The position numbers and the translations under genes are program-made. 64,000 bases of DNA from Vermamoeba vermiformis (taxonomy: Eukaryota): assembly GCA_045837725.1 (NCBI GenBank), contig JBEWZL010000243.1, positions 1-64,000 on the forward strand, in the 5' to 3' direction. The notes under the pieces are model-generated. The model did not search any database. It saw nothing but the letters and a program-made list of their open reading frames with translations, and had not been told where the DNA came from. This document shows, piece after piece, positions 3,777 through 36,265 of this stretch (position 1 is its first letter; each line of letters starts with the position of its first letter).

Positions 3777-4090
3777 TTATGGCTGGTCATAAAGATAGAC
3801 ATTATGCCATGATAAACTTGCAATTGAACCCAGGACTTTGGCAGGAGTCAATTTATGGCTGGCCATAAAGTAAAAATAAGATATTTGCCCACACCTGGAA
3901 TTGAACCTGCGCCAGTGTTGCAGCAACTCTATGGCTGGCCATAGAGGGAAAATAAAAAACTGCCCACACTTGGATTTGAACCTGCGCCTGGATTCAAACC
4001 ACGATGACAGGTTCGAGTCCCACTGTGGCCATAGATTTTTTTTATTTCTGTTATGGCTGGCCATAGACAAACAACGAAATTGCCCACACC
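3777..4090 (-). repeat. Second, decayed copy of the B-box/palindrome array
   Basis: Same unit and same terminal block (ccac.atgacaggttcgagtcccactgtggc) as 1254-1720, same orientation. Palindromes read TATGGCTGG(C/T)CATA and B-boxes read GGAATTGAACC, GGATTTGAACC, GGATTCAAACC. Confidence 0.85.
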
Positions 4091-4367: not shown

Positions 4368-4571
4368 CCCCCTTGTTGACCAAGTTTGACCAGACCCCGT
4401 CCGCGCCACGGGGACGCCCCCTTGTTGACCAAGTTTGACCAGACCCCCGTCCGCGCCACAGGGACGCCTCCTTGTTGACCAAGTTTGACCAGACCCCCGT
4501 CCGCGCCACGGGGACGCCTCCTTGTTGACCAAGTTTGACCAGACCCCCGTCCGCGCCACGGGGACGCCCCT
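4368..4571. repeat. ~50 bp GC-rich tandem repeat, 4 copies
   Basis: Unit ccttgttgaccaagtttgaccagacccccgtccgcgccac(g/a)gggacgcc; contains a CCCCGT/ACGGGG stem. Confidence 0.95.
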
Positions 4572-4912: not shown

Positions 4913-5676
4913 ACTCTGGAAAAAAACTGACACAGATCAAAACGCGCGCAATTATCTTGTCTTTCAATCGAATCCTTTATTAGTAAATAAACAATTAATG
5001 CTGTAAATATTCATTTTTGGCACGTATTCAGGAGAAAGCACGAGAAAGAAGAAAGATCCGTTCCGTACTTTTCTTAATCCGGACAATTATTGAGCGATAA
5101 TTAAAAACCCTAATACCAAAAACTTTCACCCTAACCTCTGACCCTTACCGAACACATTAAACCAATTCAAAGATCCGATGGCAATCTCTGGCTGGTTTTT
5201 TTTGGCCTAAATTTTTAGTTAGTTCGGTTTTTGTCAAACCAAAAATAAATCGTTCTTATTCATCTCATCCTTCAACAGGCAACACGTCGTTCAAGACGTT
5301 TGCCACCAAGTTTATATTTGTATTTTATTTTTTTTTCTCTCATCTAATCCCACCCACAATAAGGTAAGCAGCATTTTCGCTCGTTCTTAACGAGCAAAAC
5401 CGTGGTTCGGGGCCAATTTAATTTTATATTAAATCATTTTAAAATTCTTTGCCTCTCTTACCACGGGCTTCTGGGTGGTCTTACCTCCCTCGTGTGCGTC
5501 GCGGTCTTACCGCTTGTCTTACACAGTCCTTGACTGCACCCTTGCCCTACCAGTCCTTGACTGATAGACAGTCTAACCGTCAAATTGATTACAGGCGGTC
5601 TTACCGTCAAACAAACAAATCTTGTAATTTTTTTTTTATTCAAATAAAAGTTGTAATCAACAAAAAACCTGCGTTT

Positions 5677-6799
5677 CTATTCTATTTCTTTGTTTAAAGA
5701 AAAAATTGAATCTTCGAGGTCGACATCTAACTCTTCCTTGTACTCATCGAGGTCTTCAGGTAATATTATGCTCGTATCTATCGATTCTTTTCATTAGTAA
5801 ATTAGTAATTTGTTATTTATATTTTGTATTACTTACTATCACTTAGTAATTCTTTTATTGTTAGATCTGGTTCATCTAATACGAATTGCTCCAACAAAGG
5901 AATTCTCATCTCGCATCTCTTTCTTTGTTCACGACGCTCTTTAATTCCTTTTTCTAATTGGACTAAGTCTCTCAAAAGTTGGTGAATCTGGCGTTGTTTT
6001 TTAAGGTAAACGTCCTTGTAGAACTGCCGTTCTTGTTCTAACAGTTCTTTTGCAGCACGGTGAGCGGCTGAAACCACCAAAGGCAGCATCTCCTCGTCGT
6101 AAGTCACGAAGTGATTATTGTACTTGATTAGGTAAGTGAGTTCCTGGCTCATCTTCTTTTTGTCGGCAAGTACTACCGGGGCAACATCGTCGATGCAAAC
6201 CACGACGGGTATGGATAGAACAGAGAATTCCTCTCTCAATTCCGTGGCCAGATCGACAAAAGTTTGCCAGCCCTCGAGAAAAGTAAGTTGATCACCGTAA
6301 CAATTGAATTTTGTACGTACCTGATTAGTCCTAACCATTCGTAGCATCTCATTAACCGTCGATAACGCGAAGCCACGCCAGACAGGACTAATAGTGTCCA
6401 CGTCAAACCTAACCCTGAGGCGGTACATTGACTTGTGGACCTTGTGAACGATGAGGGCTCCGAACTTTGCAACAGCAAAAGAATCGGAAAAATATTGGTT
6501 ACCATCTTTGTCTACGGCCCAATAATAACCGTAAGTACTATTTTGTAACCCGTCGATTAAGCTAAAGAAAACAAATATTAATACCGATTCATAAGTATAT
6601 TAATATTACTTACTTGAAGGAATTTTTGGTCGGATTAAACCTAAACACACGTTAAAATTATCGTCTAATAGATTTTGTTATTACAGGGAGATTTGCACAT
6701 CCAAGAACACCGATGGATCTTTCGTCAAGTCAATAGTATTCCTTTTTTTAAAGCGAAATAAGAAAGGGCCATCGTAATTAACAGCACATACCCTGCCAT
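5677..6799 (-). CDS. Orphan protein (5 exons) with N-terminal repeated domain, coiled coil and acidic tail
   Basis: Spliced model MAGNTIDLTKDPSVFLDVQISLFNPTKNSFNLIDGLQNSTYGYYWAVDKDGNQYFSDSFAVAKF... joins ORF 5829..6428. Last exon KSIDTSIILPEDLDEYKEELDVDLEDSIFSLNKEIE*. Confidence 0.6.
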
Positions 6800-6902
6800 T
6801 ATGGTCTTTAACAATAAAACAAGTAGAAAGTGCTAGGTTTTGCAGAATTTGTCGGTAAAAACGATATTTTTGCAGCCTCTTTATTTTTACGATTACAATT
6901 AC

Positions 6903-8413
6903 TTAATTTGAACGACGTAACACCGGTTTACCATTTTCAAGGTTGATGGTAATACCAGGTGCGACGATGTGGAAGAATTCCTGCACCTTTTCGTCGATCC
7001 GATCCACCGTGAAATTCGAAAGCAAGACATTAGCATCGTGTAAACTCACCATTCCTGCGTTGTCGTTGGCAGAGTTATCGAGGTGATACACTGTCGAGAG
7101 GATAGGCTTGGGCTTCGGAACTCTGGCGCCTTGGCCATCCAATACTTGGTAAACGTAGTCCGAATCCAATTGAAGGATCCACCACAACAAGTTTTTGGAC
7201 AAGTATATGGCTGCGTAAAATCTATCTGCCATATAATAGTGTCCTAATGTAGGATGGCAGCGACAAATAACCCTGATTAGTAAGGTGAGTTAAGTTATAT
7301 AACCGAGATAACGTACGTGGCATTAACCAGCGATTTCAGGTATCGTTGTTCTTCTTCTTTCTCGTTTCCCAGCAAAGAAAAAGAGTCATCTTCGATTATC
7401 TCAGACTGCTGCTGATCCTTCTCAGCAACCTTGCTGAATTTGGAAGGTTCGTCTCCTTCTGGAGGAGATTCGGCCTTTCTTTTGCTTTGGATCGAAGTCA
7501 AGCTTGCTCGAACTCCCAATGTCTTCTTCTTCGCGGTCGAAGAAGCACCTTCCTTCGAGTCTTGTTCGAAGGTCAGTTCGGTTAGCTTCCTCTGGACTTT
7601 CTTTTTTTGCTCCAAAGGAGGACTCGTCGGATCTTCTACGTCTATGGGACGAGAACACGATCTGTCCTTCTGAGGAGTAGAGTCTGAAGAGGAAGTAACC
7701 TTGCTTATGCTCACGTAAAAAGATCTGCCGGGAGAATGGTACGGTTGGGTAAGTGCCGAGGCCTTCAATTCCTCATCGGACACTTGAGACAGAGCAGCTT
7801 GATAACTGGTATCTGGCAGGTTGTTTTCGAGAGATAGATCCAGTGCAGACGCTTCTTCGGCTCTGGGCTTAATGTCTTCTTCGGCCTCCTCTTCGATCGC
7901 ATCCACGCGTGTGTCGAAGTCCTCTTCGAAGCAGCTGTCTTCGTACTTTATCACCAGCTTCATTTCTTCGTTGTCGTAATCCAGCTCCAAGCCTTCGAGG
8001 TAATTGACGAATTCTTCTGCCGTGCTCACGTATTCATTGATTGTTTTTTTCCCGTTAGCTCTGCTGATCCATGCGTGCAAGATGGAGTTGACCTCTTCTA
8101 GTTAATTGGTCTTCAATATGGACTTGGCAGGTGAAGCGTCAGTAGTCCAGTGGTTGATTTGAAGACCTTTGGGTACCTTTGCAGGAGAAGGTTTGTCGGG
8201 TACGTACTTATTCACCCTGGAAAGTAACGAATTAACGCTTATTCCCAGCAATTCTGCTATTGCAAAGCTGTTAAGCCAATGCTTTTGCCCGTCAGAGGTT
8301 GCCAAGTGGAAGTGACCGTGCTGAGAGTCGCACCAGCAAGAGTAAGTTTCTTTTCTAGTTTAGAGTAAGAAAATAATGGTGTAATTCATTTACACTTACT
8401 TATCAAAGCTCAT
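6903..8413 (-). pseudogene. Orphan gene (3 exons) with two CxC..GH domains, BRO-N/HTH-like N-terminus, and one in-frame TAA
   Basis: ATG at 8413, intron, then KKETYSCWCDSQHGHFHLATSDGQKHWLNSFAIAELLG... ORFs 8102..8305 and 7295..8080 are in the same frame, separated by a single TAA at 8102-8104. An intron at ~7273-7316 joins ORF 6903..7232. Confidence 0.55.
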
Positions 8414-8708
8414 GTGTGTTATCGGTTCTTTTGTTAGTTAAATAAAGCGATTTTTCCAACCGACAATAAATGCAGAAGTTTGCAGTTTTTGGAAGATGAT
8501 TTTTTGTTTCGAACAATACGTGGTTAATACAGCATTTATTTCGTACGCTTGACAACATGAGTAAGTGATATAGCTTTTTTTTAACAATAGTTAATCAATG
8601 CTGTTTGTAGATGAAAAAAACCTGGCATCGCTGATCTGACAACAAGAAAAAGCTGAAGCTCGGAAAGATGATTATGGTGGAAAGTATAAAAAATTAGTGC
8701 AACGCCTG

Positions 8709-10116
8709 ATGCAACATGAAACAATATCCTTTCACGACTTCTATTTTCCTGAGGTAAGTGTTCGTAATTCTGCCAGTTATTTTTTACGTTTAATTTGTCA
8801 TTAAAGCAAGTCAAATGTTTAATTGGTAATTTACATTATTAGCATTTAGTAGTCAATATCGATCAAAACTACAGAATGCGATCAATTCGAGACTGCAAAT
8901 TTGCACACAATTATCGACTGTCAGTTTGATTGACTTCATTTTCGATCAGAAAGAAACCAACGAGATGGATGTAAAGCTCTGGACTCCTTACGAGGCGAAG
9001 CACATCATGGCCTCGCTGTACACCATGCGAAGACTCCCGTGCAGCAATCCGCTTTCTTTGAACGTGAACGAGTGGCGTTACCAAGTTGCCAAGTTCATGT
9101 TCTTGACCGAGTTCAGGCGAGTCATCGCAGACCGTGTCGTGGACAAGGAATCTGGTTGCAGGATTTTGATACGTAATGCCTGTCCCAACATTTGGTACGA
9201 CAAGGAGGGCTACGCGACCGCCAGCTTCACTTACTACAACCTGCGCTTTCGCCTTCGAGTGTCTCATTTGGTGATGTTTTGGCATCGACGAGATAGGCCA
9301 GGACCTTGGGCAGTCGACGAAAGCGGTAGATTCTTGTTGGAGCCGGACCAACCCAGAGCCAAGATTGACCTCAGCCACTTGTGCCACGTCAAACTCTGCA
9401 CCAACGAGGATCACCTCGAATGGGAGTTGACGGAAGTGAACGCCGAGCGAAACAAGTGCATCGTGAAAGGCCGTTGCATTGGTCACGTTCACCCCGTCAC
9501 AAAAAAGAGACTCAGGAGCTGCATCTTCCACCCTTCAATTAAGAACAATCAACTCGGAGAGTACGAAGATATGGACTCCCATTTCCAGCGTTTCCTCGCT
9601 TCAATTCGTCCTCTCGACTTGAACAGATACCGGCGCAATCTCAAAAACCAGATGGTTGCTCATTCCGAACAGTCGGCCAAGCGTTGGTACTCCAGTGCCA
9701 TGCAGCTCATTCGCCTGGTACCTCTTTCTCCGTACAAAATGTTCAATGACGACAAAACGGAGAAATTTTGGCTCAAGGAGCTGAAACTGAACGATCAACT
9801 GGAAGATCAATCAGTTGACTCTGACGACGATGATGGTTCTCAGCCTGATTCTTCCAAATCCAATTCTGCACTTCACTCTGATATGGGCACACTACCCTTG
9901 ATGCCTGACGACGATGATGGTGAATCTGAGCCTATGGATACCGAAGATATTGTGTACGATTCGGAAGCAACAGTAGATGGAGGAGATGATGACAGTGTAA
10001 TCTACTTGTACAGCGATGAAGAGCAGGATTCGAACGACTCTGATTCTGATTACTACTGCGACAGCGACGTTAGCTTTGACTCCGCTGATGAAAGAAGCGA
10101 CTCAAATGATTGTTGA
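8709..10116 (+). CDS. His-Cys box (His-Me finger, I-PpoI-like) homing-type endonuclease with long acidic tail
   Basis: SHLCHVKLCTNEDHLEWELTEVNAERNKC..C..H..C (9373-9522) matches the I-PpoI zinc-binding loop pattern SHLCH.x.C.N..HL.WE....N..RN.C. An upstream exon (..FHDFYFPE) splices in frame via intron 8753-8874. The true start may lie further 5' (~8557). Confidence 0.85.
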
Positions 10117-10258
10117 TTTCCAATTATTGGATTATTTGTATTCTTATTTTAGTAAAATATTTTTTCTATCATGAACTTACATCGACATTCATGTACTTAG
10201 TTTAAAGTGCTCTCTTGGTCTCCATTCATGGATACTTAGTCGTCACCACTGAAATCAC

Positions 10259-10705
10259 GTGTTAATAACATTGTTGCAGATTAATGGCTTCTCGTACAAA
10301 GTTGTGGAAATGTTTTGCACTTCACCAAACGAGCTCAAGCATGCCCTCTCAAATATTCACAATACTGATGATGGGCTAGCTGCTGCAACCCAGCTGATGG
10401 ATCACCTTATCAATACTGTACGCAGAGTACATCCGACACATGAAGAAAGCAACATTGATATCGCGCGTAAAGAATTAGCTCGACTCAAGCAAAATCTTTA
10501 TAATTGTAATAGCTTTTACATTAATCTGAGGCAGTTCACACAATGCAGACCTGTGCAGTGCATGGATGGTAAATGCTGCTTGAGTCCTGTAAGTTGTAAT
10601 CAATCAATGTTGTACAAGGTCACTGTGAATGTGGGTCATCCAAGTGATGGCAGGCTGGTCATTAATGCCCAGCCTGAAACTGCTATGAGGTACACAAGTG
10701 CATAA
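10259..10705 (+). CDS. Hypothetical Cys-containing protein (main exon; 5' end uncertain)
   Basis: 148-codon open frame with a ttgcag acceptor near its start; no recognisable motif. Confidence 0.4.
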   Translation: MLITLLQINGFSYKVVEMFCTSPNELKHALSNIHNTDDGLAAATQLMDHLINTVRRVHPTHEESNIDIARKELARLKQNLYNCNSFYINLRQFTQCRPVQCMDGKCCLSPVSCNQSMLYKVTVNVGHPSDGRLVINAQPETAMRYTSA

Positions 10706-11025
10706 AATTGTTGCAGTGGTGACAGTGAATATTTCAATTCCCGTACATCGGGGGAGACCCCCCGCACCCCCCAACATCATTTTTTCCCCAAATCTTGGTA
10801 AAGTTAATTGACTTTACTTTCATGTCTGACATATCCCTGCCCAAAGTGATTTGCCTTGTGAACATTACATCATGATCTCTCAACTCTTTGAGCTTGCTTT
10901 ATCAACTTTGTAACCCTGTGGGGATGCATTTCACATTTGAATCTGTTCTTTTGTTCTGTACGTAATTCTTCAAATTTTACTCATCAATCACAACATGAAT
11001 GCAGAGCCCTTTTTGATTTATAATA

Positions 11026-13880
11026 CCCCTGCGGGGATTGAATTAATCCCCAGCTTAATGTGCGCAGAGCGCAATTTATCGGTCGGATTCTACGTTCATG
11101 CAAAATGCATCAAACTGACCTCGTTTTGATCGAATGAATCCCAAGACTAAGTGCTGTCAATTGTTTGGATCTATCTTGGCTTGTACAATGACCCCTGCGG
11201 GGATTGCATTAATCCCCAGCATAACGTGCACGAAGTGCAAAATCAATTAACGACACTCGAAGTTTTTGAGCAACGTATAATGTAAAGCACTTTTTAATTG
11301 GAATTACCCCCTGCAGGGATTGAACTAATCCCCAGCTTAATGTGCACGGAGCGCAACTATTCGGTCACATTCTACATTGGAGTGAAACTTTTGATTAATC
11401 CCTTACTACTTGCAACAAACAATAGTCAAAATCATAATCTTGAGGATCAGACCCCTGCGGGGAATGCAGCCCCGGAACTACACGTGCGCTCTTTTTTGTT
11501 CGGCCTTTTTTAGCTCCCAATTACTTTCTTAATGCTCTTCTTTGTTAGCTCCAACTACATTCTTTATGCTCTTTGTTTTTTGATTTTCATCCTCAATTCA
11601 CTGTTTTGTCATCAAGTCATTTGCAGCATCACATTGTCATGCCATCTTCAGGCTCAGTAAATTGTCATCATCATAATGATCCTCAATATCATCATCATCA
11701 CCATCATCCATAAAATTGACTCATTTTTCATCATTTCTCAGTGATCTAACCCCTGCGGGGAACACAGCCCCGGAACTGCACACGCGTTCTTTTTGTTTGG
11801 CCTTTACTTAGCACTCAATAGCGTTCTTAATGCTCTTTTTCATTAGCTCCAACTACTTTATTTATGCTCTTCTTATTTTAATAATCATCATCAATTCACT
11901 GTTTTGTCATTAATTGATTCGCACCATATCATCATTGTCATGATAATCATCTTCATCATTACATTTTCATCATCATCATCATTAAAACTACCCAGTTTTT
12001 GTCATTCCTCCATGAACTACCCCCTGCGGGGAAAGCAGCCCCGGACTACAAGCGCGTTCTTTTTGTTCGGCTTTACTTAGCTCCCAATTACCTTCTTAAT
12101 GCTCTTGTTTGTTAGCTCCAAGTACATCTTTATGCTCTTTGTTTTTTTATTTCCATCCTTGATTCGCTGTTTTGTTATCAAGTCACTCACACCATATCAT
12201 CATCAAATCATCATCTCATCATCATCATCACCATCATTGAATTATTTCAAGTATCATTGAATTTCTTGGTAACCTACCCCCTGCGGGGAAAGCAGCCCCG
12301 TTACTACAAGCGCGGTCTTTTTGTTCGGCGTTAACTTGCTCTCAGTACCGTTCTTTATGCTCTTCATTGTTAGCTCCAAGTACATTCTTTATGCTCTTTA
12401 TCCGTTGATTTTCATCATCAATTCACTATTTTGTCATTCGCATACCATCATCATAAGGGTCCATTGTCATCATCACCATGATCCTCATCCTTATCATCAT
12501 CATCATCCTCATCATCCTCATTGAATTAATTCAATTTTCATTCATTTTCATCTTAATTGACCCCCTGCGGGGAAAGCAGCCCCGGACTGCACGCGCGGTC
12601 TTTTTGTTCGGCATTTACTTGCTTTCAGTGCCATTCTTTATGCTCTTCGTTGTTAGCTCCAAGTACATTCTTTATGCTCTTGATTCGTTCAACCATATCA
12701 TCATCATTGCCATGATCATCATCTTGTCTTCATCATCATCATCATCATCATCCTCAGGATGATCATCATCACTGCATCATCATTACATCATCATCATCAT
12801 CATATCATCTAATTTCAATTTTCATTCATTTTCTTTAAAGTTACCCCCTGCGGGGATCAATCCCCGGAACTGCACTAGCGTTCTTTTTGTTTGGCTTTTA
12901 CTTTGCTCTCAATTCCGTTCTTAATGCTCTTTTTGCACGACATTGTCACATCATCATTATCATCCTTCTCATGATCATCATCATCATCATCATAATCATC
13001 ACCATCATTATCATCATTGTCATCATCATCAACTAATCTCAAATTTCACTGATTTTCTTCATAAGTTACCCCCTGCGGGGATTGATCCCCGGAAAAGAGT
13101 GCGCACGGAGCGCTATTAGATTCAAATACCGTTCTTTTTGCTCTTTTTCATGTGCGAAACTATGGGAATTACGCGCGTTAGCGCGATTATCCCATGCTTA
13201 AAGCACACGTGTACCAGTTAACCATCATTGATACCATTGCAATGATGATCATCATCAACATCATCGTCATCATCATCATTTAATTATCTCAATTTTCATC
13301 ACTTTTTTCAAAACTACCCCCTGCGGGGATTGATCCCCGGAAAAGAGCGCGCGCGGAGCGCTATTAGATCCAAATGACGTTCTTTTTGCTCTTTTTCATG
13401 TGCTAAATGATGGGAATTACGCGCGTTAGCGCGATTATCCCATGCTTAAAGCACACGTGTACCAGTTAACCATCATTGATACCATTGCAATGATGATCAT
13501 CATCGTCATCCTCATCATCATCATCATCATCTACTAATTTCACTTTTCATTGACTTTCTTCATAACTTACCCCCTGCGGGGATTGATCCCCAGAAAGAAC
13601 GCGCGCGGAGCGTGACTAGATCCAAATCGCGTTCTTTATGCTCTTTTTTACTTGAAAACGATGGGATTTACGCGCGTTAGCGCGACTATCCCGTATTTAA
13701 AGCACGCGTTGCTGTTACTTTACATTGATTACTATAGCAATGATGAAGAATGACATCCTTCATTCTTCTATTGATTTAAAGCATTCGTGTACCAATTAAC
13801 ATTCATTGATTAGAATTAACAATGAAATTTCATTCTCTTATCCTCATCATTTCATTCATTTTTATTTGGGCCCCGCGGGG
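11026..13880. repeat. Long-period (~115-300 bp) tandem array anchored by ACCCCTGCGGGG-loop-CCCC, with (CAT)n tails
   Basis: Anchors at 11026, 11192, 11307, 11452, 11750, 12020, 12277, 12561, 12844, 13069, 13317, 13570 and a remnant at 13871. Confidence 0.92.
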
Positions 13881-15025
13881 ATCTACGATGAACTCAATCA
13901 CGCATTAACACTAGTGATATTAAGGAGTTAATAATTGGTAATATTAATTGGAAAAGTGTAAATTAACTTACCTGTTAGCCGCATCCGTACTTTGTTCGAC
14001 ATCCAAGATCGCCAAGTCCTGGATCAACGCGTCGGGCCACCTAAACAATAAAAAGATATTAGATTAATTATTCGATGTGTTATAAAATGTAAATAACTTA
14101 CTCTTATGCGTTTAATGGTCCCGCCAAGTAAAATTTAGCGGATCGAGCCCGGTACTTCTCGATCAGCTTCATCGGGCTCGATCGTTCGTGTGAGTATTCC
14201 TATTAATATAACGCGTTAGTACTTGGCTTGTTAATCGTGATTATGTGCTTACCTTCGATATCTTTGACTTTAACCAGGATTTTTCAACGCGCGAAGTCGA
14301 CGATCTAGATCCGTGTTGAGTAACTTGTACCGCCTAAATAAAACGCTTTAGACTATTAAACAATAATAAAATAAACGATTTAAACTACTTACGGTTGCTT
14401 CATTATTGGGAATCGAGAGATCGGTTTCGCGCTCGATCTAAAACTCGCACCAAAGTTCTGATGTTCAAATTACTATTAAATAATGATTAATATATTATGT
14501 TAATAATAAAATAAACAGTAATTTATATTTTAAACGAGCACGAAGCTCGATTCGTATCTCGTAATTATTTAAGAGTAATTTTAAATTTTAAAATGACGCG
14601 TTCCCTGCGTCTAATTGAATGTTTTTATTATTGAAAAATAACTTACGGAATATTTCGATGCGTCCAACGCATCCGATCTTGGCATCAAGTTACCGAATCC
14701 GTCACCGAGCAGTGGCGACCATCCCTACAGTGGGACACGAACGGAAAAAGCCAGTATACCGTGAAACGACCATTGGTGGTCTGGATCTCGCGCATCGAAA
14801 GTGACTGGAACTTTCGATCGCGCTAAAAAACCGTAACAATAATCTAAATAAAAAATTACGCGTTAGAATATTGTATTTAGTATAATTTGATAAATATAAG
14901 TTAAAAATCCAGATAAAATCCGAGCACGAAGCTCGATCCGGATCTGATTGATTTTGGTTCCAAAATTTAGAAATTGAATTTACGATGTTAAAATAATATA
15001 CATGGTGAAAGGATATTAAAAAAAT

Positions 15026-16375: not shown

Positions 16376-17083
16376 GTGACCAGTCACACTCTCTGTCTGT
16401 GACCGGCCGGTCACGCGCTCTCCCTGTGACCGGTCACGCTCTTGCCTGTGACCAGCAGCCGGTCACGTGCTCTCCCTGTGACCAGCTGGTCACACTCTCT
16501 TGCCTGTGACCAGCCGGTCACGCTCTCTTGCCTGTGACCAGCCGGTCACACTCTCTCCCTGTGACCAGCCGGTCACACGCTCTCCCTGTCTCCCTGTGAC
16601 CAGCCGGTCACGCTCTTTCCCTGTGACCAGCCGGTCACACTCTCTGTCCGCAACCAGCTGATCACACTGCCTGCCCCTTGTGACCAGCCGGTCACGCTCT
16701 CTGTCTGCGACCAGCTGGTCACACTCTTTCCCTGTGACCAGCTGGTCACACTCTTTCTCCTATGACCAGCTGGTCACGCTCTCTGTCCCAGCTGGTCACA
16801 CTGTCTGCCCCTTGTGACCAGCCACGCTCTCTGTCCCAGCTGGTCACGTTCTCTGTCCCGCAACCAGCTGGTCACGCTCTTCCCTGTGACCAGCCGATCA
16901 CGCTCTTTCTCCTGTGACCAGCTGGTCACACTTCTGTCTATGGCCCCTGTGACTCAGTCTCTGCGCCTATGACCCTCTGGTCACGCTCCATGTCCTAGTG
17001 ACCAGCTGGTCACACCTAGTCTCTACCCCTGTGACCTGCTGGTCACGCTTCTGCCTATGGCCCACTGTAACCTATTGGTCATG
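16376..17083. repeat. Palindromic minisatellite GTGACC(A/G)GC(C/T)GGTCAC, ~26 units, ~27 bp period
   Basis: Repeated gtgaccagccggtcac/gtgaccagctggtcac separated by pyrimidine-rich linkers; decays to the right. Confidence 0.95.
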
Positions 17084-17288
17084 CCTAGCAGCTGGGTTGT
17101 AGCTGCATAAATAAAGCAAAATCTAAGGGTATCTGGATTTTTTTATTTGCCCTAAGACCCCTAAGCCCTAAAAGGCTATATAATAAATGTTTATTTACTT
17201 TTTTCACTATTCTTTGGGTTAGTGAACGTTGACAGGCTTTTTGAATATGGTTCGATTGCCTTGTAACTAGGTTTGACCACCTCAGAAA

Positions 17289-17450
17289 GCCTCGGAACTT
17301 GGTTCGACAGCCTCGGAACTTGGTTCGACAGCCTCGGAACTTGGTTCGACAGCCTCGGAACTTGGTTCGACAGCCTCGGAACTTGGTTCGACAGCCTCAG
17401 AACGTAGTTCGACTGCCTCAGAACTTGCTTGGAACTTGGTTTGCTGCCTC
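17289..17450. repeat. 21-bp tandem repeat (5 perfect + ~2 degenerate)
   Basis: Unit gcctcggaacttggttcgaca. Confidence 0.95.
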
Positions 17451-24324: not shown

Positions 24325-27300
24325 TTACATGAGCATTTGTTGCAACTCCAATGGCAACATTTGTAAGAAAGGATTTGGTTCGTCATCAACAACGAAGTCC
24401 GTGTCAATTTCAACACACGTGGTAATTGCGTATAACAAACGATCACGTGTTACTTCGAGGCTTGAGTACTGTGGTAAATCCAAAGAGAAGAAACAAGTGT
24501 GCGCCTCTGGCAAGAATTGATCTGGATCTCCGTCCTTGAGGAAGCGACACAGAGCGAAGGGCATTGGCCACTCGTTATCAGCGGGCAAACGAGACCTACC
24601 CAACACGAAGCGAATCAACAATTGCTTTTGCTCTTCGGTGAATCCTTCGACTGCTTCCCAGAAGAACTTGACGTATTGAGCGGTAGGATCCACCATTTTG
24701 TACACGGTGTGGCTCTTTAGCACATTGACGTCAACGCTACGAGAACCGCAAACTCGCTGCTCGACCTCACGTGGCGTCAGTATGTTCAAGAATTGTTGCG
24801 GCAAGATTTGGTTGATGCCTGAAAAGATCTGTTAGCTTTCCGTTGCTGATCGAGTAAATTTCAAACACTTACCTCTAATCATCGCTTCAACTTGAGGAGC
24901 GAACTCGTGCAGTTTGTAATCTTGCAACAACTTGGCAAATTCTAGTCTGTTGTCGAAGGTAACCGTCTCTTCATCACCGCCAGATCGCAATTCAACGTCT
25001 CGGCCATCGGCTGACTTTGCAGTGAAATTTTGGAAAATGACGTCTTCGAAGGTTTCACGCGTCAGCGCACCATCACCTGCCAAGGCACCGCGAATGTTTT
25101 CCAAAAGGTGCGCAATGTTCATGTCAATATTCTTCAAGTCCTCGACGTCCACTTTGAGGCCTACAAGTGGTTTCCAAATGATAGACGGCCAGTCAAACTC
25201 AAGCGGATTGCGAGTACGGATTGCTATGCCAATCAGCTTGCCAATAAACTCGAAGTATTTGATGCTCGCGACAGTGCTCGCGGAAGGGTTTGGCACGAAC
25301 TTCTCTTGATCTGGACCAAGCTGGAATTGATTATTCGCAGTTGGGACGAATAACTCCTTCTCGCTTTGTATCTCCTTGCAAACTTGAGAACTGCAAACAA
25401 CGTTAGATCCTATACTACAAAAGTAATTAATCTTCTTACATTGTCTCGCGGTAAGGTCCACCAATGTCCGTGGCACCTTCTTTCTCGAAGATCACTTCAA
25501 ACGCACGATCCTCTTGTCGCAGTCGCTGGCTTTGTATTTTCTGGAATTGCTTGAAGACTTGACGCCAAAGAGCTCCAGCATGACGATTCAGCTTCATCTT
25601 GGGTCTAATCAAGTTCGTTGAGGTCTCGTGCAATGCTGCTGTGAGCCACTCGGTCTTCATTCCCCAGAACAAAAGTCCTCGGAGATGACTTAACGAAGCC
25701 GTAATACTCCACTGATCGACGATCTTTCGAAGGTCCAAGAAAGGCAATAACTTGCCTACTCGATAATTGAAGTACTTGAGGAGTTCAAATCGTGCTTCAA
25801 TAGCCTCCATTGTGAAATTCTGTAAAAGAGGAGCCAGCTGAGAAGTGTCGCAGTCCGCTAAGCTGAACTGAACGGACTCGTGAATGCCATACGGCGTTGA
25901 GTCTTGAGTGTGCAAGCGCTTGAACTTGGCGATGGCGTTGATGATAGCGACAAGCTGCTGGTCCTTGTGCACAGTCCAGTCATCAAGCGTGTCCAAACAA
26001 ACCTTCATCATCCTCTCGCTCTTTGATTGTTGTTCTGCAGCCGTTTGCTGATTGAATATGGGCGTGACGGTGAAGCGGAAGCCCCAATCGGGGAAGTTCC
26101 TGTTTGACATAAAGCGCCATACAAAGGAGTTCCCCTTGATCTTCAGCTGAGCAGGGAAGGTCTGGCTGAATCGTTCGATTAATTCACCTTGCTCGTCTTC
26201 AAAAACCAAGAATGCGTGGTTAGGAACAAGTGAAGTACGTGGATCGAACTCGATGAGCAGATCAGTAGCGTTCTTGATGCTGATAGAACTGTCAAGATTG
26301 CTTTGAGGTCTGTATGGGTGCGTTGACTCTTCAACCCAAACTTGACCTTGGTGTTGCCTGAATTTGCCAGTGAACGCCTTCTTTATGAAATCCTTCGAGA
26401 AATTCTGCCCCTTGAGCAACTTGTCCATCACATCGGCGAGTTCTTGACCGTTCTTGAAGAAGCCGTAGCTCTTCTTGAATCCCAACTTCTGCGAGTCAGG
26501 CAGAACTTGGCCCTTCTCTTCGCAATCCAATTGTTTCGCGTGATTGACTTTGATAAGCACCTCAATCATTCGTTGCAAGTACAAAGAGTGCGTGCTGGCA
26601 ATGGACTTTCGCTCATCTTCATACAACTGCTTGACTTCAGTCTCGAGCATTGCAAGCAGATTGACGTTTGGTCTGTCATCTTCATCAAATAAGCGCCATT
26701 GGTTGAAGAGTCTAGCGATTGCTGTAAGAATGCGAATGCGGTTTGGAACGGCAAACTCTCGCTTGTGGTAGTGCTTGATTAATGCCTCGAAGAGTTCATT
26801 GCAGTACAAAGGCTTCACCCAAACGGGTTCCATGTTGAGCAACCAATCAACCACGAACATTCCAAACTCGAAACTGGGCTTTGTGAGCATCTCTTCGTCT
26901 GTGAGCTTCGGAGCAAGAGGAACGACCCAGAATTTGTAGCCCCATTCGGGATTTTCCTTGTCAGTCTCGAACGTAAGCCAGAAGCTGTTCGAGTTGACGA
27001 TTGTTGTCGGCCATGCTTGGTGACCCTTGCCATGGAAGATACCAATCAGCTTACTAAGACTGGCGTCTTCAAAGAATGAGCAAAAGTCGAAGCCAGCTTC
27101 AGTATGACAATCTTTGTCGAAAATGACGCAGCAACTTTCCGAGCCCTCCAGTTTGATCATGCGACGGAACTTCGCATTGTTTTGGTACGGATGGGATGAT
27201 TCTTCAACAAGATATGGGTACTCTTGATCCAAACTGCCAATCAAATTGCGAATGCACTCGGAGATAAGCATATCAGTGAACTTTGACTGGAAGCCAGACT

Positions 27301-30300
27301 CAGCGGCTGGCTGTTGTGTTGTGAGTTTGAGGCTTCTCCGCGACTGGTTGCAACTTGGGACTAGCAGGCTTTGGATTACCTGGCGTCGGTTGCATGTGAA
27401 TTGCAGCAATTGATTCCTTTCTCCGAACGCGCACAAGGTTAGACTCTTCCCTGCGCAATGGAGCAGAAGCATCGTTGATTGTCTTGATCCATGCCTGTTG
27501 ATCTTGCGCGTTCTCGCAACTGAAAATTAACGTGTTGTTCGGAATGGTGACCTCGAAACAGTTGTCTCGGTTTAATGTCTTGGGTGCTGCCTTGACCGCG
27601 ATTATGTTCTTCAATTCTGTCTCGGACATTGGAGGCAAGGGCTTTGCCTTTTTGACATTCAAAGAGTTTTCAGTTAGCACAACAAATCTCTCCATCCATT
27701 GCTGTCTTCCAATCGACGGACCAGCTGAAAGCATTTGAAGCGAACCACTACAATAAAATTAGTACCTTCGCAAAATAATCAGAGTTAGAAATATACCTGA
27801 ACAGCACCTTCGCTGGTACTCTCGCCGGTTGGAAAGCTGCTGTTAGCTTGGCTACACCGCCGCTAACCGGCTGTTTTACAGGACCGACGGCTGTTTTCAC
27901 GGGGCTCGGACCACCAGGCGCAACAATACCAACCTTTGGTCCAAATTTGGCCGTTCCAATCTTTGGTGGTGCCGTGCCCGATGGAGGCATAGGCAACTTC
28001 GGGTTTGACTTAGCGAGCGGACCTTGCAAAGGTTGTTTGGGACCAACCATGCCCTTGACAAAACCCGGGCCTTTACCTTGGATAGGCATTTTAGGCAACG
28101 AACCCTGTTTGGGAATGGCAGGGCCGGTAGGATTTGTTACTGACGCAGCGGCTAGCTTCTTTCGCTCGTCAATTCTGGGTTTGGCTAGATTGAGCCAGTG
28201 AGCGGCGATTTTGCGAACTAGCTGATCGACACGGCTCTTGGCTCCCACACCATGAGGCAATGATCTAAAGACAGTCTCTTGCTTCAAGATCTGACGCACT
28301 CTTTCTTTAACCAGCTTTAGCTCGTTGTTCTCCTTGAGACTGAAATCGACGCTCTCTACCGAAGTAGCAGAAATATTCTCGAGGATCATCAACTTTAGCA
28401 ATTGAATCAAGCTGATCGCTCCTCCGATAACATGCAACGAGAGCGTTTCAGTGGCGGGCACGTTCTTTAGGAAACTGAATGTAGCTTGACGCGAGTATAG
28501 AACTGCCAATTGCTGCTCGAGTACTGCTCTTTGCTGTTGAATTTCGGCTTTGGACGCTCTTTGGAACTCTGTGTCAACGAGTTCCAGCGAGTTGACGTTA
28601 TACCAGAACAACTGTTCGCTCCTCTTCCTCATCTTCATCGTGTTCATCCTCGTCATCATGAGAATGATCATCGATATTGGTGATACGCAACAGGACGTAT
28701 TTGTCTTTGATATTAATGTTTTCCACAATGCCAATCTTGCCAATAGTTGAATTCATCTGCGAGACCCAGAATCCTTGCGTTGCTACGTCAGCTCGAGCAA
28801 CTGCCAGGCGCCAACCGATTTGAACGTTTTCGATGGCAATGTTGCCCTTTGAAGCCTCGCTGCCATAAAGATCCGGCAAGAGAGCAGAGCCCTTGGCGCT
28901 GAATGCATCGTTTGGAACAGGTGTTTCTATCACCAAGTAGATATTCTTCGGGTTATTCTTGGCCTCCTCTTTCTCGCACGAGGCACAGATATTGAAGTTG
29001 GGCTTACTCAAAGCCTTGTAGCGAACTCCAACAATCTGCGCCTTGTTACAAATGTCGCACTTGACATCTTTGTGAACGAGATCCGAAGCAGGCTTCTCCA
29101 GCTTGTCATTCTTGTACAAATTAGGCAACAAAGGAAGTACAGCGCTAGGAGGCGGGTAGATGACGGGGAATAAGCTCGAAGGACATTCCTTGAAACGTAT
29201 TAGAATTCGGCTGGTAGAGTATTAGAAAGCTTACTCTGCGAGAAGGCAAAGGAACATTGACTTTGTAATAAATCTGCCACGATAGTCTATCCTTTGTCGT
29301 GTAGCACTTTTCGCACAGATCGAAGTCGGGCAAATTCGCATTCTTGTAACGACAGCCCTTGATGGGGGAAGCACCGCAACCATCACACCGCCAGCCAACA
29401 TGAACATCAGTGGCACCAGAAACGGCTCCTTCTTCAAGCTGTTTCTTATTTGCGATGAATGATAAGAATTCCAAGAACTCGACTTCTCCGTCATTGTTCA
29501 CTGATAAACGGTTAGAGTACATTAGCAGTAGAAATTACTTACAATCCATTTGTTGGAATGTTTCAATATCAGCATCATCACCACCACGACCAAGAGCAGT
29601 CAGAGCTAAGATGAACTCCGCCAGTGAAATTCGGCCGTCTCCATCAAGGTCGAAAACGGAAAACTCTTCTTTGATCTCGCGGACATCTGCAAAGCTCAAG
29701 TTTCCTGCTTTCATAATCTTCAACAGCTTATCGTTGAATGATAAGTTGTCGTCATCTTCTTGCTCTTCGACTTTTTGTGCCTTCGCTGCAACTGCCTTCT
29801 TCTCGGCACTAGCGGTGAGATCTTGATCGGGCAAAAACGATAGATAGCGGCGAGCGTTGACAAGCTTCTGTTCTGTTGCTGAAAGCTTGACTCGATCCGT
29901 CGTGCTCAGCGGTGACAAAGCTAATTGCACCAAACTTGGCATGATCGTTTCTTGCAAAACAGGATCGAGGTTGTTTTGTGGGAACTTGACTAAAGCGTCC
30001 AGTGCCTTGATTGACGTCATCTTCACTCTCGCGAACAATGCTGCTACAGTCTGAGGTGCTGTCTTGACATCAATGTGGAATGGTATAATTGCTTGGAAGA
30101 CTTCACATAGCTCTTTAGTCAAAGGAACCATCTCTGGCTTCACGTCAATATCTTGACTGAAGTGAATGTCGTGTTCATTCTCGACAACGATGAAGTCGAA
30201 GCGATCTAACACGTGCTCTGACTCTTCGGCATGCGCATCACGAAGCATTACTTCGTATTTGCCGTAGTTATTCGTGGCCACGATGACACCATTCTGGGAG

Positions 30301-33300
30301 CCCAATGCTACTCTGGCACCAATCCTCGGATGGTCTTTGAATGCACCAATTATCTCTAAAGATTTGCAAGCCTTATCGATTCTGGGCTTCCAGTTTTGAG
30401 TGATTGAATTGACGTTCATCTTCGCCCCCTTGACAAATTCCGGAATGCTCTTCAAACTTTCCATAATCGCGTTGCGCAAGTGAGTCTCCCACTCTGCTCC
30501 TTGAGTCAGCAGATGACGTGCGAGCATTACAGACTCGTAATCGTGTGCTTCAATAACATCACGCTGATGTTTCAGTGGTCGTGTCAATGCAAGTAATTCT
30601 CCGAACTTGTTGTTCATGTCTGTTGTGCTTGGTTAGCGACGCTTCTAATAATGCCTATTCGATCTATCTTACCAAAAGCGAATGGCCTTTGGCCGAAGTT
30701 GACCGCCACCACGGCACTTGGGGAATTGAGACCAACAGCAGGGAAGAAGCTTCCAAATACGTTACGGAATGCAAGTCCAACCGTCGCTCCATTTCTTGTA
30801 AAAGCGACGGATCCCGTTTCACAGTCCCAGAAAAGTCCTGCAACGTCGCTTGGTTTTTCCCAAGTGGGGCCAAACTCCGCGCCGGAACCCTCTAATCGGT
30901 AGTTAAACGCATTACCTATCGATTGATTAGACTCGTTCCATAAGTGTGATAACCAACGTACCATCGTCAGCGTGGTAGCCGTAGCTGCCGTGTGACCAGC
31001 CTGGCATACCGTCCATCTGAGGAATCTGCTCAGCGGGATACAATCCAATGCTAACAGCTGCATCTTTGCCCGGATTAACGATGGTAACTTCGTAATAGAA
31101 AAACTTGGCAGCAGTTGGAACGGACCGATCTGAGTGAACCAAGCTGACAGTATCAGTTCTCATATTGCCGTTAATAAGAACGTATCTAAAGACAAAAATT
31201 GTTAGTTTAGACACCTTGCTCACGGAACAACATACCCGTCGTCAGACACCATAACAGGACCGCACGTGTGGCTGCCGTTCATTTTTGTCGGACCATGGCT
31301 AGCCAAAGCGAAAGGAGTAGCTGAGTCTGCTTTTTGTTTAAGTGACTTAAGCAAATGATGCGCGTTGGTAGGCACTGGTGAGCTTGCAGGAGTCACTTCC
31401 AGAGCGGGCGCTAACACGGCAGGGCCAAGGGAGCTCATAAATCGCAGGCTACGCAAAAGTAGCGAAGTTGTTGACGGCTCCGTGGAACGCGCAAGCAATT
31501 CGATAAAGACTTTGGCGAGTGTCTTGTTGCTTCGCAGTAAGGTAGAAACTGATGACTTGCCCAAAAGAGTGAAGAACAATGCTACAAAGCGTCGCACCCA
31601 CAAGCCAGTTGTTTTTGTGGATGTCAGCACGGGCTGCAATGCTTCCACAAATTCGTTCAGCAAGCCAACAACTCCTTGATCTGTTTCTGGTGCTGTTTTA
31701 AACACGCTGTGACCAACCGACCAGAACACAAGTAAGCCAAGGTCCGAATGATTGCCAGAGTACAGCGTGCCAGCCTTCTTCAAGATACCACTCTTGTGTA
31801 TTAACGTCGCGTCAGAAGGCAACCAAGCCACAGTAAGAAGTGACGTGGCGGCGTCAAAAGTAAGGTGATGTTGCGGGGTGCTGAGGAGCTTGCCTAATAG
31901 GCCCAAGTACAAGTCGGCAAATGCCTTGCTAAGCTTTTGCTTGGAGTCGACTGAAGCGCCCTGAAGCTGATCCAAATAGCTACTGACATCATTCTTACGA
32001 GAGGTGAACGCCTTTCCAACAGCCGCTAACACGTCGTTGATGACAAGTGGATAGTTGAGGGAATTGACCAAATCCAGCACGTGAACAAACGCCTCCTCGC
32101 GCTGCTTCGCTGCCAATTGCCCTTGCTTGATAGATGCGTACAGTACTTGAGCATCTAAATTGCTAAGCAAAAAGGATTGGACATGCTCGACTGCGACGTC
32201 CGCGTTTGCCACAACACAGTTCAATAGTAACTTGGCGCGTGCAACAATGCTTGATGCAATCTCTTGGTAAAGATTGGTTTTCTTGGCCAACAGTCCTTTG
32301 GCGTCGAGCCCCTTAGAGAAGTCATCAGATGCACTTGCTGCTTGCACTCTCATCATAATCTGCTGTCTAATCGCTCTAGCGATACTCCACACAGATGAAA
32401 CCGCGGGTGGAACAACAGCAGGAAGGGGCGCGCTTTGTGCTAACTTCTTCACTTCGTCAACAAGACTAGGACGGAAGTGCAATACAGCCGCGATAGCGTA
32501 TCTTTCGGCAACTGTAACACTTCTTCTGAGGGTGTTATTACGGTGTAATTGAATTATTGAAATCAGCATACGTACCCTTGGTGTGAAGGTCCTCCAAGCA
32601 GTCTAGTCTCCAACCACTTTGCAAGCTTGGCAACAGGCTTAGTGGCATTTGCGATATCCAATAAATCCTCGACCACCTCGTCATTCTTCTGACTTTCGTC
32701 AATGCCGGCATCAAATAGCTTGGGATCCATCTTAGTGTCTTGATGTAGGGCGGACATGCCAGTCATGCCCTTCAACAAAGCGCCAATGAGAGAGGCAAGT
32801 CTAGTTTCGAGTTCAACTGTCCAAGGCACCTGAGGATCTTCTTTTGGTTGAGAATCTTCGTCCTCATCCTCTTCTTCATCCTCATCGTGCGGAACAGCTA
32901 CACCAGTGATGTAACACTTATAACCCCACGCATCGGAGGACATCTCTTCAGGGGTATGGAAAACAAGTGCCAACGCATCACCAGGCACAAGTAGTCGTAC
33001 AGGAAAGACGGACTTGTCCGTAAGTGGAGGGCACACTCGGACGGTTCTCTCGGGATTCATGATATGCAAGTAAGTCCCCGGGCCAAGTGCCGTTTTGGCA
33101 TCGAACTCAACAATCATGTAATCAGCCCTGCTAGCGTTAGTACTATTAACTGTATGTCCCTTAAGCTTACTTTGGGAATCCAAATATATCCACGGTGTCA
33201 GTGTCAGGTTGACAAGGATGCTGCGACTCTCGGACTTCTTGAGAAGGCAATTGTACTTGCGACATTCGATGCAAAGCCTCTATGTCATCAGCAGGACCAT

Positions 33301-36011
33301 AGAACAACTGGACGTTGGTGGCATCGACTTTCTTGGCAAGTTGAATCAAAGGCAGTAAAAGTGGCGAGATCGCTTCGTAATGCTCAGTAGCATTAAACTG
33401 TAGCAAATCGACGGCAGAGCGTAAGAGTGTTTTCAAAAAAGTCTGCTTTTCGAGGTCTTGGTATATATAAACGCTGGAAGCCATCGATAAAGTTGTTGTT
33501 GCCTCAGTGATAAGTTGTCTTGCAACGAGTCCAAACAGCTGAATGTTGGATGCGTCGATGGCCAATGAGTTAAGAACGGCACTGAACAAATCAAGAGCCT
33601 CAATAGACTTCATCATAGCCGTGATGGCGGCAGCAGTGCCATCTGCGTTCTCAGTAGACAATCCAAGTAAGTTGGCCAAATGGGCGTGATGGCGGTGACG
33701 AGCATAAAAATGACGGTAGAATAATGATGCGTTCGGCCCGTTCAGACTAACCACGAACTGCGTCTTCTCCTTCTGGGTCATAAATGAATCCCAGCCAATA
33801 ACAAGCGACTCCATAGCCAGTTGGAGCAAGCTCTCCTGCTTCTCGCCCTGCAGCTTAACCAAGATGGCCTTCAGCTCTGGCTCCGAGCTTTGACCAAGGC
33901 GACTCTGTCGAGAGACGTAAAACAAAGTAGTCGCTAAAATCTCGAGCAAATATTCCGTCGATTTGGGGTCCTTGTTGATTGCCAATAAAGTCTTCACCTC
34001 TTCGACGACGAGCATAGTTGCCTCTACGAAGAAAGGGCGAGTAGGAGTACGAGAGCCAATCTGACAATCGGATTAAATACTAGGCCTCTACGCAATAAAT
34101 TATACTTACGTGTTGATGAAGAGTTGGACGCTGAGATCTCGCGAGAGAGGCCAAATAAGGTAAAAGATCTTTGACACTGGCGACACGAGCGATGTCTTCT
34201 GAGTTAATAGGCAACTCTTCGTTGACAAAATAACCAACCGAGCCAGTCAAAGCGCCGTAGTTCCATACCAAATTAGTAGTTCTATCGTAACTGCATGGAG
34301 TACCAAGAACTTTGTTGAGCTTTTTTGAAGAAACCACGTGACCGTCTGTAAGGTCGTAGATGATTGAGTAGTGTTGGGAAGTATTTTCTTCGAGGATGGT
34401 TGCAACAGCGCCCATGAAGTGCCCGTTTGTATAGTATTGCGCACTGATGTCCACGGCTAAAGAGAATTAGTATTGACATCACATCGCTTGGAATACTTAC
34501 TTGTTATGCTCGCGCCAAACACTGAAGTTGTTTGTTGACTATTCAGTACCACAGTTCTTTCATATACTGGCAAATTGTCCTCGATACGATAGATTTTAAC
34601 GGTGAAGAAGTCACGGCAAACAGCAAATAAACGTCTGCCGTCCGAGGTAATATAACCTGGATCCGGTGAGCTCTCACTAGGTTCATCTTCTTCGGGCAAG
34701 GCTCCGACATCTAAGGCTTGCAAAGTGCCAAGATCTAATCTGTGCAGCTCATCGTCGATGAAAGCATACAAACTTCCATTGATGACTGCCAAACCATCAA
34801 CCGTGGAGGTCTGTTCCACTGGTTGAGTGAGGTTCACTTCGCCTTGCTTGGTGTTGTTGAAACCAGTGCCTACTTTCATTAAACCAACGGCCTTATCGTA
34901 CACATAAATATATGTGCCATCGCTAGCTACGCAGTGTGAGGACTGGAATTCCGCGTCACGAACATCACCGTACGCAGCTTGAATGGGTTGATTGAACATC
35001 ACAGGGAAGCGAGCTGATATTCAAACGTTAAGCACCCCATTACTAGACTTATTAGAAGCACTTACTAGTTAACTCATCGGGGAAAACGCTAAGAGCGCTT
35101 CGTTTGTTGACATTATTTAGAAGCTCTACGTGACGTTCAATATTGATTGCCTGCAGCTCAGCTGATGATTGAGAGACGCGCAAAGCTGCCAATAAGCCCC
35201 TTACGGATCCTAATCGCAACAATTAAGCAGCTAATTTTCGGTATACGAAGTACGCTTACCTCGAGATCCGGCTAACAGGAACAAAGTCTCCAAAGCCGAT
35301 TTCTTCATTTGCAAATCAATTGATGGCGTACTTAATACGGAAATAATCCATTGTTGGATGGAATCGAAAGAATCTTGCGAAGCATTTCGAAGTTCTTCGG
35401 CGACAGCGGGATCCTGTTCCAAAAAAATCAGATAAAATTAATAATTATTTTCTTGTACATTACCTCAAGAAAGCTTTGTAATTCTGTTAAAGTTTCTTTC
35501 AGATCTTCCACCCGAAAAGTTTTGACAGCTCTAGTAATTAAACGCAGCTGCACTGATAATAGCGATTTTGCTCCGATAACCTTCTTGTCCGACTCCTATT
35601 GGATATTTTAGATTAGTTATGGCACTATTTTTGGTTTCTGAAAAAATTCAATTCGCTTGAACTCACCAACTCATGTTGACGCTGCTGCTCGTCTTTAAGT
35701 GCCTTGATTACTTTGCTTAAAATAATACCGCGCTTTTGAGCGTTTTGTTGGCCAAAGGTCTGGCCAGATGAGCTGACCAAATTGGAACGGAAATAGGCGA
35801 CAGATTCAGAAAGATTCTTCCACAAGAATTCGCTGTCGTCAATGTCGTAATAAAAATAATGGTCATCTCCATTATATTGTTCTGTTTCCAACCGTTCCTG
35901 AGCGACAAGTTGCTGAATCTCTGCACCTTTAAGTGAGGTTGCCAGCTTGTTCGTCACGAACTTAGGATCAAGCAGAGAGGCGCTATCAACGTCCAACCAC
36001 GATCCTTCCAT
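24325..36011 (-). CDS. Very large HECT E3 ubiquitin ligase with SPRY, EF-hand, two ZZ zinc fingers and PH domain
   Basis: HECT: EGATDIGGPYRE, FEFIGKLIGIAIR, LPEAHTCFFSLDLPQY. SPRY: FYYEVTI..GYHADDG..AFTRNG..FPAVG. EF-hand: FDLDGDGRISLAEF. ZZ: CDGCGASPIKGCRYK, CDICNKAQIVGVRYK. PH: WMERFVVL..WIKTI. Confidence 0.92.
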
Positions 36012-36265
36012 GATAAAAGAAGTGGTTGTGTTGTCACCTACGCATAAAGATAAAATTAGGAAAAAAAAACAAAAAGCAAGATACTCAAAGGACCACGAAA
36101 CCACAACTGTCAAACAGCAATCAATAGAATATAATTGGGTGAACTCATCCGATAATTGTAATTTTCATAGCTCTAGATCTTCACTTGCCCGATCAAATTT
36201 CTTGTGCAACAAGGTCCACGACTCTTTGCAATCACGCTGAAACATTAGACACTAATATATGCATT

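Follow-up and report, generated by a model that had tools for sequence, protein, structure and literature searches.

Nucleases of the His-Cys box type are known from textbooks as selfish enzymes encoded in introns of ribosomal DNA (rDNA), and one of them, I-PpoI, is routinely used to introduce defined breaks into eukaryotic genomes. To our knowledge, free-standing nuclear copies of the His-Cys box are present in databases and have hardly been studied. Here we analyse such a gene on the plus strand of a 64,000-nucleotide stretch of Vermamoeba vermiformis DNA (assembly GCA_045837725.1, contig JBEWZL010000243.1, positions 1 to 64,000; termed the window), whose predicted product, P0001, combines an I-PpoI-like nuclease domain with a long acidic tail. 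Several published systems stand close to it. I-PpoI represents group 12 of the His-Me finger classification, for which the structures 1a73, 1a74 and 1evw are in the Protein Data Bank (PDB); just 62 eukaryotic (fungal) members were assigned to this group in the 2017 classification (PMC5714182). Spliceosomal introns are documented in the His-Cys box genes of myxomycete rDNA introns (I-DsqI, I-DirI type), which give a polymerase II-type message and contain a small spliceosomal intron (PMC9548176). Finally, the KolobokP transposons of animals bear I-PpoI-like nucleases, a form of the domain that lives outside introns; there the nuclease gene neighbours that of a DDD/E transposase, and the unit is enclosed by long terminal direct repeats whose ends bear short inversions (PMC9587614).

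P0001 shares with I-PpoI the fold (Z 9.9), the catalytic His and Asn, the His/Cys zinc ligands and a nearly identical FLLEPD...SHLCH stretch. Unlike I-PpoI, it is encoded outside group I introns and rDNA, and it is much longer (383 versus 162-163 amino acids (aa)), since it adds N-terminal helices, a post-core helical region and an acidic tail of 106 aa. The gene resides in neither a group I intron nor an intein, the location that defines a homing endonuclease genetically. It would resemble the genes of the I-DsqI/I-DirI type in being a His-Cys box gene with a small spliceosomal intron, if the candidate intron discussed below holds; those genes, however, still lie within rDNA group I introns, whereas the P0001 gene is chromosomal. 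With KolobokP, and with a transposase-nuclease fusion found among our database matches (P0056), it has in common an I-PpoI-like domain outside introns in a eukaryotic nuclear genome and the conserved S-H-L-C-H...N core. Nucleases of the KolobokP type are small, unlike P0001 (median 142 aa among the 95 matches in our search), and neither the adjacent transposase nor the bracketing terminal repeats of KolobokP were found at the P0001 gene, in the open reading frames (ORFs) of at least 90 aa at positions 1-24000 or in the flanks at 8300-10300, respectively.

The features of the locus are collected in the table below. The reading frame of P0001 is uninterrupted from 8830 to 10116 (428 codons, stop codon at 10114-10116), and its codon usage, in both the core and the tail, is similar to that of the other long ORFs of the window. 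The codon-usage score of the core is 0.215 in the P0001 frame and negative in both alternative frames; for the tail it is 0.276, versus -0.069 and -1.141 in the other two. An antisense ORF at 8911-9534 has no Pfam match, and we regard it as a side effect of the sense frame. A DNA contig assembled from run X1 (word depth ~280) is identical to the window over 8331-10403, although X1 may be the assembly's own source and is not an independent confirmation.

Features of the P0001 locus (positions in the window)
Feature	Position	Strand	Basis
A-run, 7 A; not a frameshift site opening an upstream exon	8614-8620	+
Candidate first exon, ATG 8709 or ATG 8716, up to consensus donor GTAAGT at 8754	8709-8753	+	In-frame splice models
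Upstream open stretch, potentially coding together with a spliced upstream exon (candidate)	8830-8964	+	In-frame, weak codon score
Minimal coding sequence (P0001)	8965-10116	+	Earliest in-frame ATG at 8965; 383 codons and stop
Predicted I-PpoI-like fold, residues 36-193: N-terminal beta-sheet region and beta-beta-alpha-Me core with zinc loops	9070-9543	+	AlphaFold2, VIA-align, Foldseek
His-Cys box, residues 137-186	9373-9522	+	Pfam, I-PpoI alignment, conservation in 40 sequences
Post-core helical region, residues ~190-250, opening with conserved CIFHxSI	9532-9714	+	Predicted helices, similarity to P0002 and P0003
Acidic Asp/Ser-rich tail, residues 278-383	9796-10113	+	Composition, disorder, codon usage

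A prior sequence-only reading of the stretch had described the protein as a homing-type endonuclease with the catalytic residues of I-PpoI, and we searched it against the Pfam profile PF05551 (zf-His_Me_endon). Residues 131-170 match this profile with an E-value of 3e-7 and a score of 31.1 bits, which exceeds the curated cut-off of 27. Moreover, a single-sequence phmmer search recovers the I-PpoI chains of the PDB with an E-value of 4.6e-5; a profile built from five sequences brought no gain (E 8.6e-4). The stretch FLLEPD...SHLCH...N..RN.C aligns residue for residue with I-PpoI. It contains SHLCH at residues 137-141 (nucleotides 9373-9387) and the Asn of EVNAER at residue 159 (nucleotides 9439-9441), the two elements that had been likened to the catalytic His and the metal-binding Asn of I-PpoI, and the alignment bears this out: His138 corresponds to His98 of I-PpoI and Asn159 to Asn119, and Ser137 and Glu154 correspond to Ser97 and Glu114. 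In I-PpoI, His98 is the general base that activates water and Asn119 is the ligand of the single Mg2+; a role is described for His110 too, and Ser97 and Glu114 are described as conserved (PMC9587614 and PMC3384342).

The His-Cys box as a whole comprises S137, H138, C140, H141, C145, H150, E154, N159, R162, C165, C171, H174 and C186. Nine of these residues (H138, C140, C145, H150, E154, N159, R162, C165 and C186) are invariant in an alignment of 40 sequences, and the other four (S137, H141, C171 and H174) are conserved in at least 90% of it. The zinc ligands C140/C145/H150 and C165/C171/H174/C186 are retained, as the earlier reading had proposed; Cys140, Cys145, His150, Cys165, Cys171 and His174 correspond to Cys100, Cys105, His110, Cys125, Cys132 and His134 of I-PpoI, and C186 is assigned by its invariance in the 40 sequences. 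Cys65 is likely to be the eighth ligand, to judge from its invariance among P0001 and its two closest relatives, P0002 and P0003; if it is included, the sequence would provide the eight His/Cys ligands for two zinc sites that characterize the family.

The structure predicted by AlphaFold2 from the 40-sequence alignment agrees with this assignment. The predicted local distance difference test (pLDDT) reaches 83-97 over residues ~50-190, and the overall mean is only 64.3 because the tail is disordered. VIA-align superimposes residues 36-193 of the model on residues 2-143 of the I-PpoI chain 1evw_A with a Z-score of 9.9 and a root-mean-square deviation of 3.8 Å (124 aligned of 162 residues). The best structural matches are four I-PpoI entries (Z 9.4-9.9), followed by I-HmuI (Z 5.9), the MH1 domain of SMAD5 (Z 4.3) and NFI (Z 3.3-3.5), and Foldseek likewise finds I-PpoI (E 1e-4, probability 1.00). 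The beta-beta-alpha-Me fold that the sequence-only reading had staked its assignment on is thus present in the predicted model. These matches indicate that the complete I-PpoI fold is there, and with it the N-terminal sheet through which I-PpoI reads its DNA. A homodimer prediction with two copies of residues 30-252, run without controls, gave a score of 0.00, which speaks neither for nor against a dimer. In all the protein features examined, namely profile, catalytic His and Asn, zinc ligands and fold, P0001 belongs to the His-Cys box family.

A HMMER search of 1.84 billion representative proteins yielded 95 matches with E-values of at most 1e-3, two of them at or below 1e-10 and none at 1e-30; P0001 itself was not among them. 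The two best are P0002 (341 aa, E 7e-20; E 1e-27 in BLASTP, aligned from residue 1 to 256 of P0001) and P0003 (337 aa, E 4e-13), both singletons on short contigs, with 25-30% identity to P0001. Only these two, among all the representatives searched, share the full plan of an N-terminal helical region, core, CIFHxSI motif, helical stretch and acidic C-terminus. The 95 matches have a median length of 142 aa, 62 of them stop at most five residues away from the last Cys of the core, and three lack the motif pattern. An acidic tail, defined as at least ten Asp or Glu after the core, is found in six (P0002, P0003, P0007, P0008, P0019 and P0096). P0056 (368 aa) is a Mutator-like transposase (PF20700, E 5e-44) with a C-terminal zf-His_Me_endon domain (E 3e-11), an arrangement that differs from the two genes of KolobokP. 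In a quick maximum-likelihood tree of the core (92 rows, 134 columns, excluding the three motif-less matches and the duplicate P0097), all seven acidic-tailed proteins, including P0001, fall within a group of 25 rows, separate from a group of 67 mostly short proteins; the support is weak (85 in the Shimodaira-Hasegawa-like approximate likelihood ratio test).

The neighbours of P0001 in the ESM Atlas are clusters of eukaryotic 'hypothetical proteins' with PF05551, mostly from Ascomycota. Like P0001 these are nuclear, free-standing and uncharacterised, but they are distant in sequence: no match of the fungal type is closer than P0002 and P0003, and no acidic tail is reported for the fungal genes. 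A word-based protein search found no match for P0001, and with a profile of the three sequences it retrieved only P0003. Neither did a tblastn search of a phage collection give a match. Three pattern matches in viral contigs could not be confirmed, and metagenome contigs contained a single locus (L001, 1531 base pairs (bp)), of the short core type only. Among the titles and beginnings of abstracts retrieved by literature searches, none describes an acidic-tailed free-standing His-Cys box nuclease; the alignments in the supplement of PMC9587614 may hold relatives. The matches found here, the ESM Atlas and PMC9587614 agree that I-PpoI-like genes standing alone or carried by transposons occur in many eukaryotes. 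The singularity implied for the gene in the sequence-only reading consequently has to be narrowed: the full architecture is rare, whereas I-PpoI-like genes that are free-standing or borne by transposons are widespread, and His-Cys box genes with introns have been described.

Downstream of the core, four helices are predicted at residues 190-197, 201-213, 219-230 and 235-250, at a pLDDT of just 48-66. The motif with which this region opens is conserved: C186, I187, F188, H189 and I192 are invariant among P0001, P0002 and P0003. The acidic tail had been estimated at about 100 aa of Asp/Ser-rich sequence, and it is real. Asp makes up 28% of the last 106 residues, Glu 8% and Ser 19%, while just two residues are basic, and the net charge is -36, compared with +14 for residues 1-277. 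With an AlphaFold2 pLDDT below 50 the tail is predicted to be disordered. It holds one hydrophobic patch, VIYL, between acidic residues and an SFD motif near its end. The search for SUMO-interaction-like motifs gave one match between acidic residues in P0001 (VIYL at 345) and another in P0003, a lead only.

Two further observations concern the tails as a group. Similar short motifs stand at or near the ends of the tails of P0001, P0002, P0003 and P0019 (SDVSFD, SMDLFFD, SMDEDFD and NMDFD, respectively). This [S/M]D..FD pattern was spotted by eye, and is a lead only. Moreover, acid-flanked hydrophobic patches in the tails (VIYL, IIDL, IDLN and VVDL) resemble SUMO-interaction or histone-anchor motifs, and they too are a lead only.

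The 5' end of the gene allows more than one model. Similarity to P0002, the closest relative, sets in at precisely Met1/Asp2 of the protein that begins at ATG 8965, and P0002 has merely 11 residues before this point. No homologue extends over the open stretch at 8830-8964, and its codon score (8854-8964) is weakly positive in frame (0.171, versus -0.112 and -0.067 in the other frames). It is possible that an upstream exon and a spliceosomal intron precede the coding sequence. The donor GTAAGT at 8754 can be used from ATG 8709 with an intron at 8754-8874, or from ATG 8716 with an intron at 8754-8852 or 8754-8849; the hexamer is over-represented in the window, with 32 and 46 occurrences per strand versus ~18.5 expected per strand. 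The sequence-only reading had given the gene its own spliceosomal intron and a start at 8709. Joining in frame is indeed feasible, but this model is one of 87 ATG/GT/AG combinations that a script lists as formally open, three of which use the consensus donor at 8754. The same reading had further proposed that one more A in the run of seven at 8614-8620 would bring an exon starting at ATG 8557 into frame. This was wrong. From ATG 8557 (spliced over 8561-8610) or from ATG 8611, a stop is reached within 7-16 codons at every length tried, that is with changes of 0, ±1 and ±2 to the A-run, the seven As themselves being present, and between 8612 and 8660 there are stops in all three frames.

The window is eukaryotic in character, with a G+C content of ~40-48%, split ORFs of ordinary eukaryotic genes, whose translations carry the Pfam domains HECT ligase, ankyrin, LRR, Kelch, NAD-glutamate dehydrogenase and Hsp20, and the over-representation of GTAAGT. 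The nuclease gene is chromosomal and sited among these ordinary genes. At their gathering thresholds the Rfam covariance models gave no match of any kind in the whole 64 kb, and thus no ribosomal RNA (rRNA) or group I intron, in line with the earlier statement that no rRNA or group I core is visible around the gene. Relaxing the search to E-values of at most 1 over 5000-14000 recovered neither Intron_gpI nor rRNA, just two unrelated weak matches, to an enterobacterial small RNA model and a C/D small nucleolar RNA model, both far under threshold. ARAGORN called no transfer RNA (tRNA) anywhere in the window.

This context also bears on the proposal that P0001 serves as accessory nuclease to a DNA transposon (KolobokP or Mutator-associated type), the remainder of which is unrecognised or decayed. 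The abundance of short proteins among the matches, 62 of 95 of which stop right after the core, speaks for such an origin, as do the fusion of the domain to a Mutator-like transposase in P0056 and the I-PpoI-like nucleases of animal KolobokP (PMC9587614). Yet Pfam finds no transposase, integrase or reverse transcriptase domain in 41 ORF translations (13 + 28), a set that includes every ORF of at least 90 aa within 1-24000. Nor are there long direct or inverted repeats bracketing the gene (8300-10300), and neither tblastn nor blastn detects a second copy in the window. The additional N- and C-terminal regions of P0001, and its separation from the 67 mostly short proteins in the tree, albeit weakly supported, likewise argue against this proposal, which we rate as unlikely.

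Equally improbable in our view is a catalytically silent DNA-binding protein, in which the fold would have been recruited to regulate transcription or chromatin, by analogy with SMAD MH1 and NFI, with the tail as an activation or histone-binding region. SMAD5 MH1 and NFI are among the structural matches of the model, and many factors of transcription and chromatin carry acidic tails. Moreover, MH1 is regarded as a descendant of the His-Cys box fold (PMC3384342). In P0001, however, the catalytic and metal-binding residues, which MH1 has lost according to PMC3384342, are all kept and are invariant in the family, so that the hallmark of MH1 and NFI, a fold kept after its catalytic residues were lost, is absent; in addition, the match to I-PpoI is far stronger than those to MH1 or NFI, whose Z-scores are only 3.3-4.3. 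Finally, a homing endonuclease gene, escaped or acquired horizontally, that persists as a decaying relic and is no longer expressed, for which one could cite the upstream ATGs, out of frame or blocked by stops, and the lack of RNA reads in runs that provide no valid test, is very unlikely given the open frame of 428 codons, the integrity of every conserved residue, the codon usage of core and tail, which resembles that of the other long ORFs, and an architecture in common with P0002 and P0003 (25-30% identity), which points to selection acting on the protein as a whole.

We consider it probable that positions 8965-10116 of the plus strand are a real eukaryotic nuclear gene, single-copy within the window, that encodes a free-standing I-PpoI/His-Cys box endonuclease. 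Several points weigh against this view or against parts of it. Several in-frame models exist for the start codon and the intron. Three RNA sequencing runs that carry the same species label contain no reads over 7200-11000, but the neighbouring genes have none either, so that this is not a test of expression. Conservation of the catalytic residues alone does not prove activity, and the role of the tail is argued from its charge and its disorder. The family is very sparse, with just two of 1.84 billion representative proteins at or below 1e-10, and the tree does not resolve P0001 as sister to P0002 and P0003. Lastly, the context was judged within 64 kb, and the genome beyond may hold a distant transposon partner or further copies.

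If the endonuclease assignment is correct, the mechanism can be modelled on that of I-PpoI (PMC3384342). P0001 would bind double-stranded DNA through its N-terminal beta-sheet, which would read the major groove. It would then cleave by the one-metal beta-beta-alpha-Me mechanism, with His138 activating water and Asn159 holding one Mg2+, and two zinc ions would brace the fold. It is rather likely that the enzyme is catalytically active. Its target would probably be a long, partly symmetric site, as for I-PpoI. The gene, which now stands alone, would descend from a homing-type nuclease once carried by an intron or a transposon, and would be maintained either as a nuclease used by the host or as a free-standing selfish gene. 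The tail could act as a DNA mimic, an autoinhibitor or a histone binder, as was suggested in the sequence-only reading. With its charge of -36 and predicted disorder it would most likely fold back on the DNA-binding surface of the +14 core, or recruit partners, and may in this way restrain or target an enzyme that might otherwise damage the genome encoding it.

A more specific version of this model would make P0001 a domesticated homing-type nuclease equipped with an inhibitor in cis. In colicins, the His-Me DNases are silenced by acidic immunity proteins that are separate molecules; here, the tail would act as a releasable DNA mimic on the core and turn the protein into a switchable enzyme for programmed breaks. 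Release might occur when the tail is bound through the aromatic/acidic SFD-type end motif or the VIYL-type patch, phosphorylated or cleaved. We regard this version as unlikely.

Other features of the window were recorded in passing. The gene is flanked by a divergent minus-strand gene (5829-8359), which includes a Glu/Asp/Ser-rich segment at 7295-8101, and by a plus-strand ORF (10253-10705); neither has a Pfam match. About 1.3 kb downstream of the gene, positions 11445-13709 consist of arrays of ~248-298-bp tandem units, each with (ATC)n runs, G+C-rich palindromes of the type CCCCTGCGGGG...CCCCGG and a second hairpin-like motif, and related 71-bp copies lie at 11026-11378. A satellite, an element resembling a miniature inverted-repeat transposable element or a minus-strand Asp-rich coding repeat are candidates for these arrays. 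Tandem units of ~83 bp at 1260-1661 and 3844-3989 contain a GGATTCGAACC-type motif that resembles the 3' half of a tRNA, and they are possibly copies of a tRNA-derived short interspersed element or of a satellite. Minisatellites were noted at 16383-17013 (27/84-bp repeat with the palindrome GTGACCAGCCGGTCAC, ~20 copies), 17288-17427 (21-bp repeat, 6.7 copies, 94% identity) and 4395-4568 (50-bp repeat, three copies). Finally, positions 24325-36164 of the minus strand hold a very large multi-exon gene, with many long ORF segments separated by short gaps and a HECT ubiquitin-ligase domain at its end (PF00632, E 2e-35).

In summary, the P0001 gene is a genuine, well-preserved, free-standing I-PpoI-type nuclease gene. 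The I-PpoI-type domain, its free-standing or transposon-borne occurrence and His-Cys box genes with introns were already known; what sets the gene apart is the rare, long, acidic-tailed architecture. The gene provides an intact example with a built-in acidic tail, accompanied by two distant relatives of the same design, through which the taming of a nuclease and its control by a tail become testable. Should P0001 be inactive or merely selfish, it would be a routine addition to a known family; should it be active and site-specific, it would be an additional rare-cutting enzyme. And if the tail indeed proved to be an inhibitor in cis, P0001, P0002 and P0003 would constitute a new class of regulated eukaryotic nucleases.

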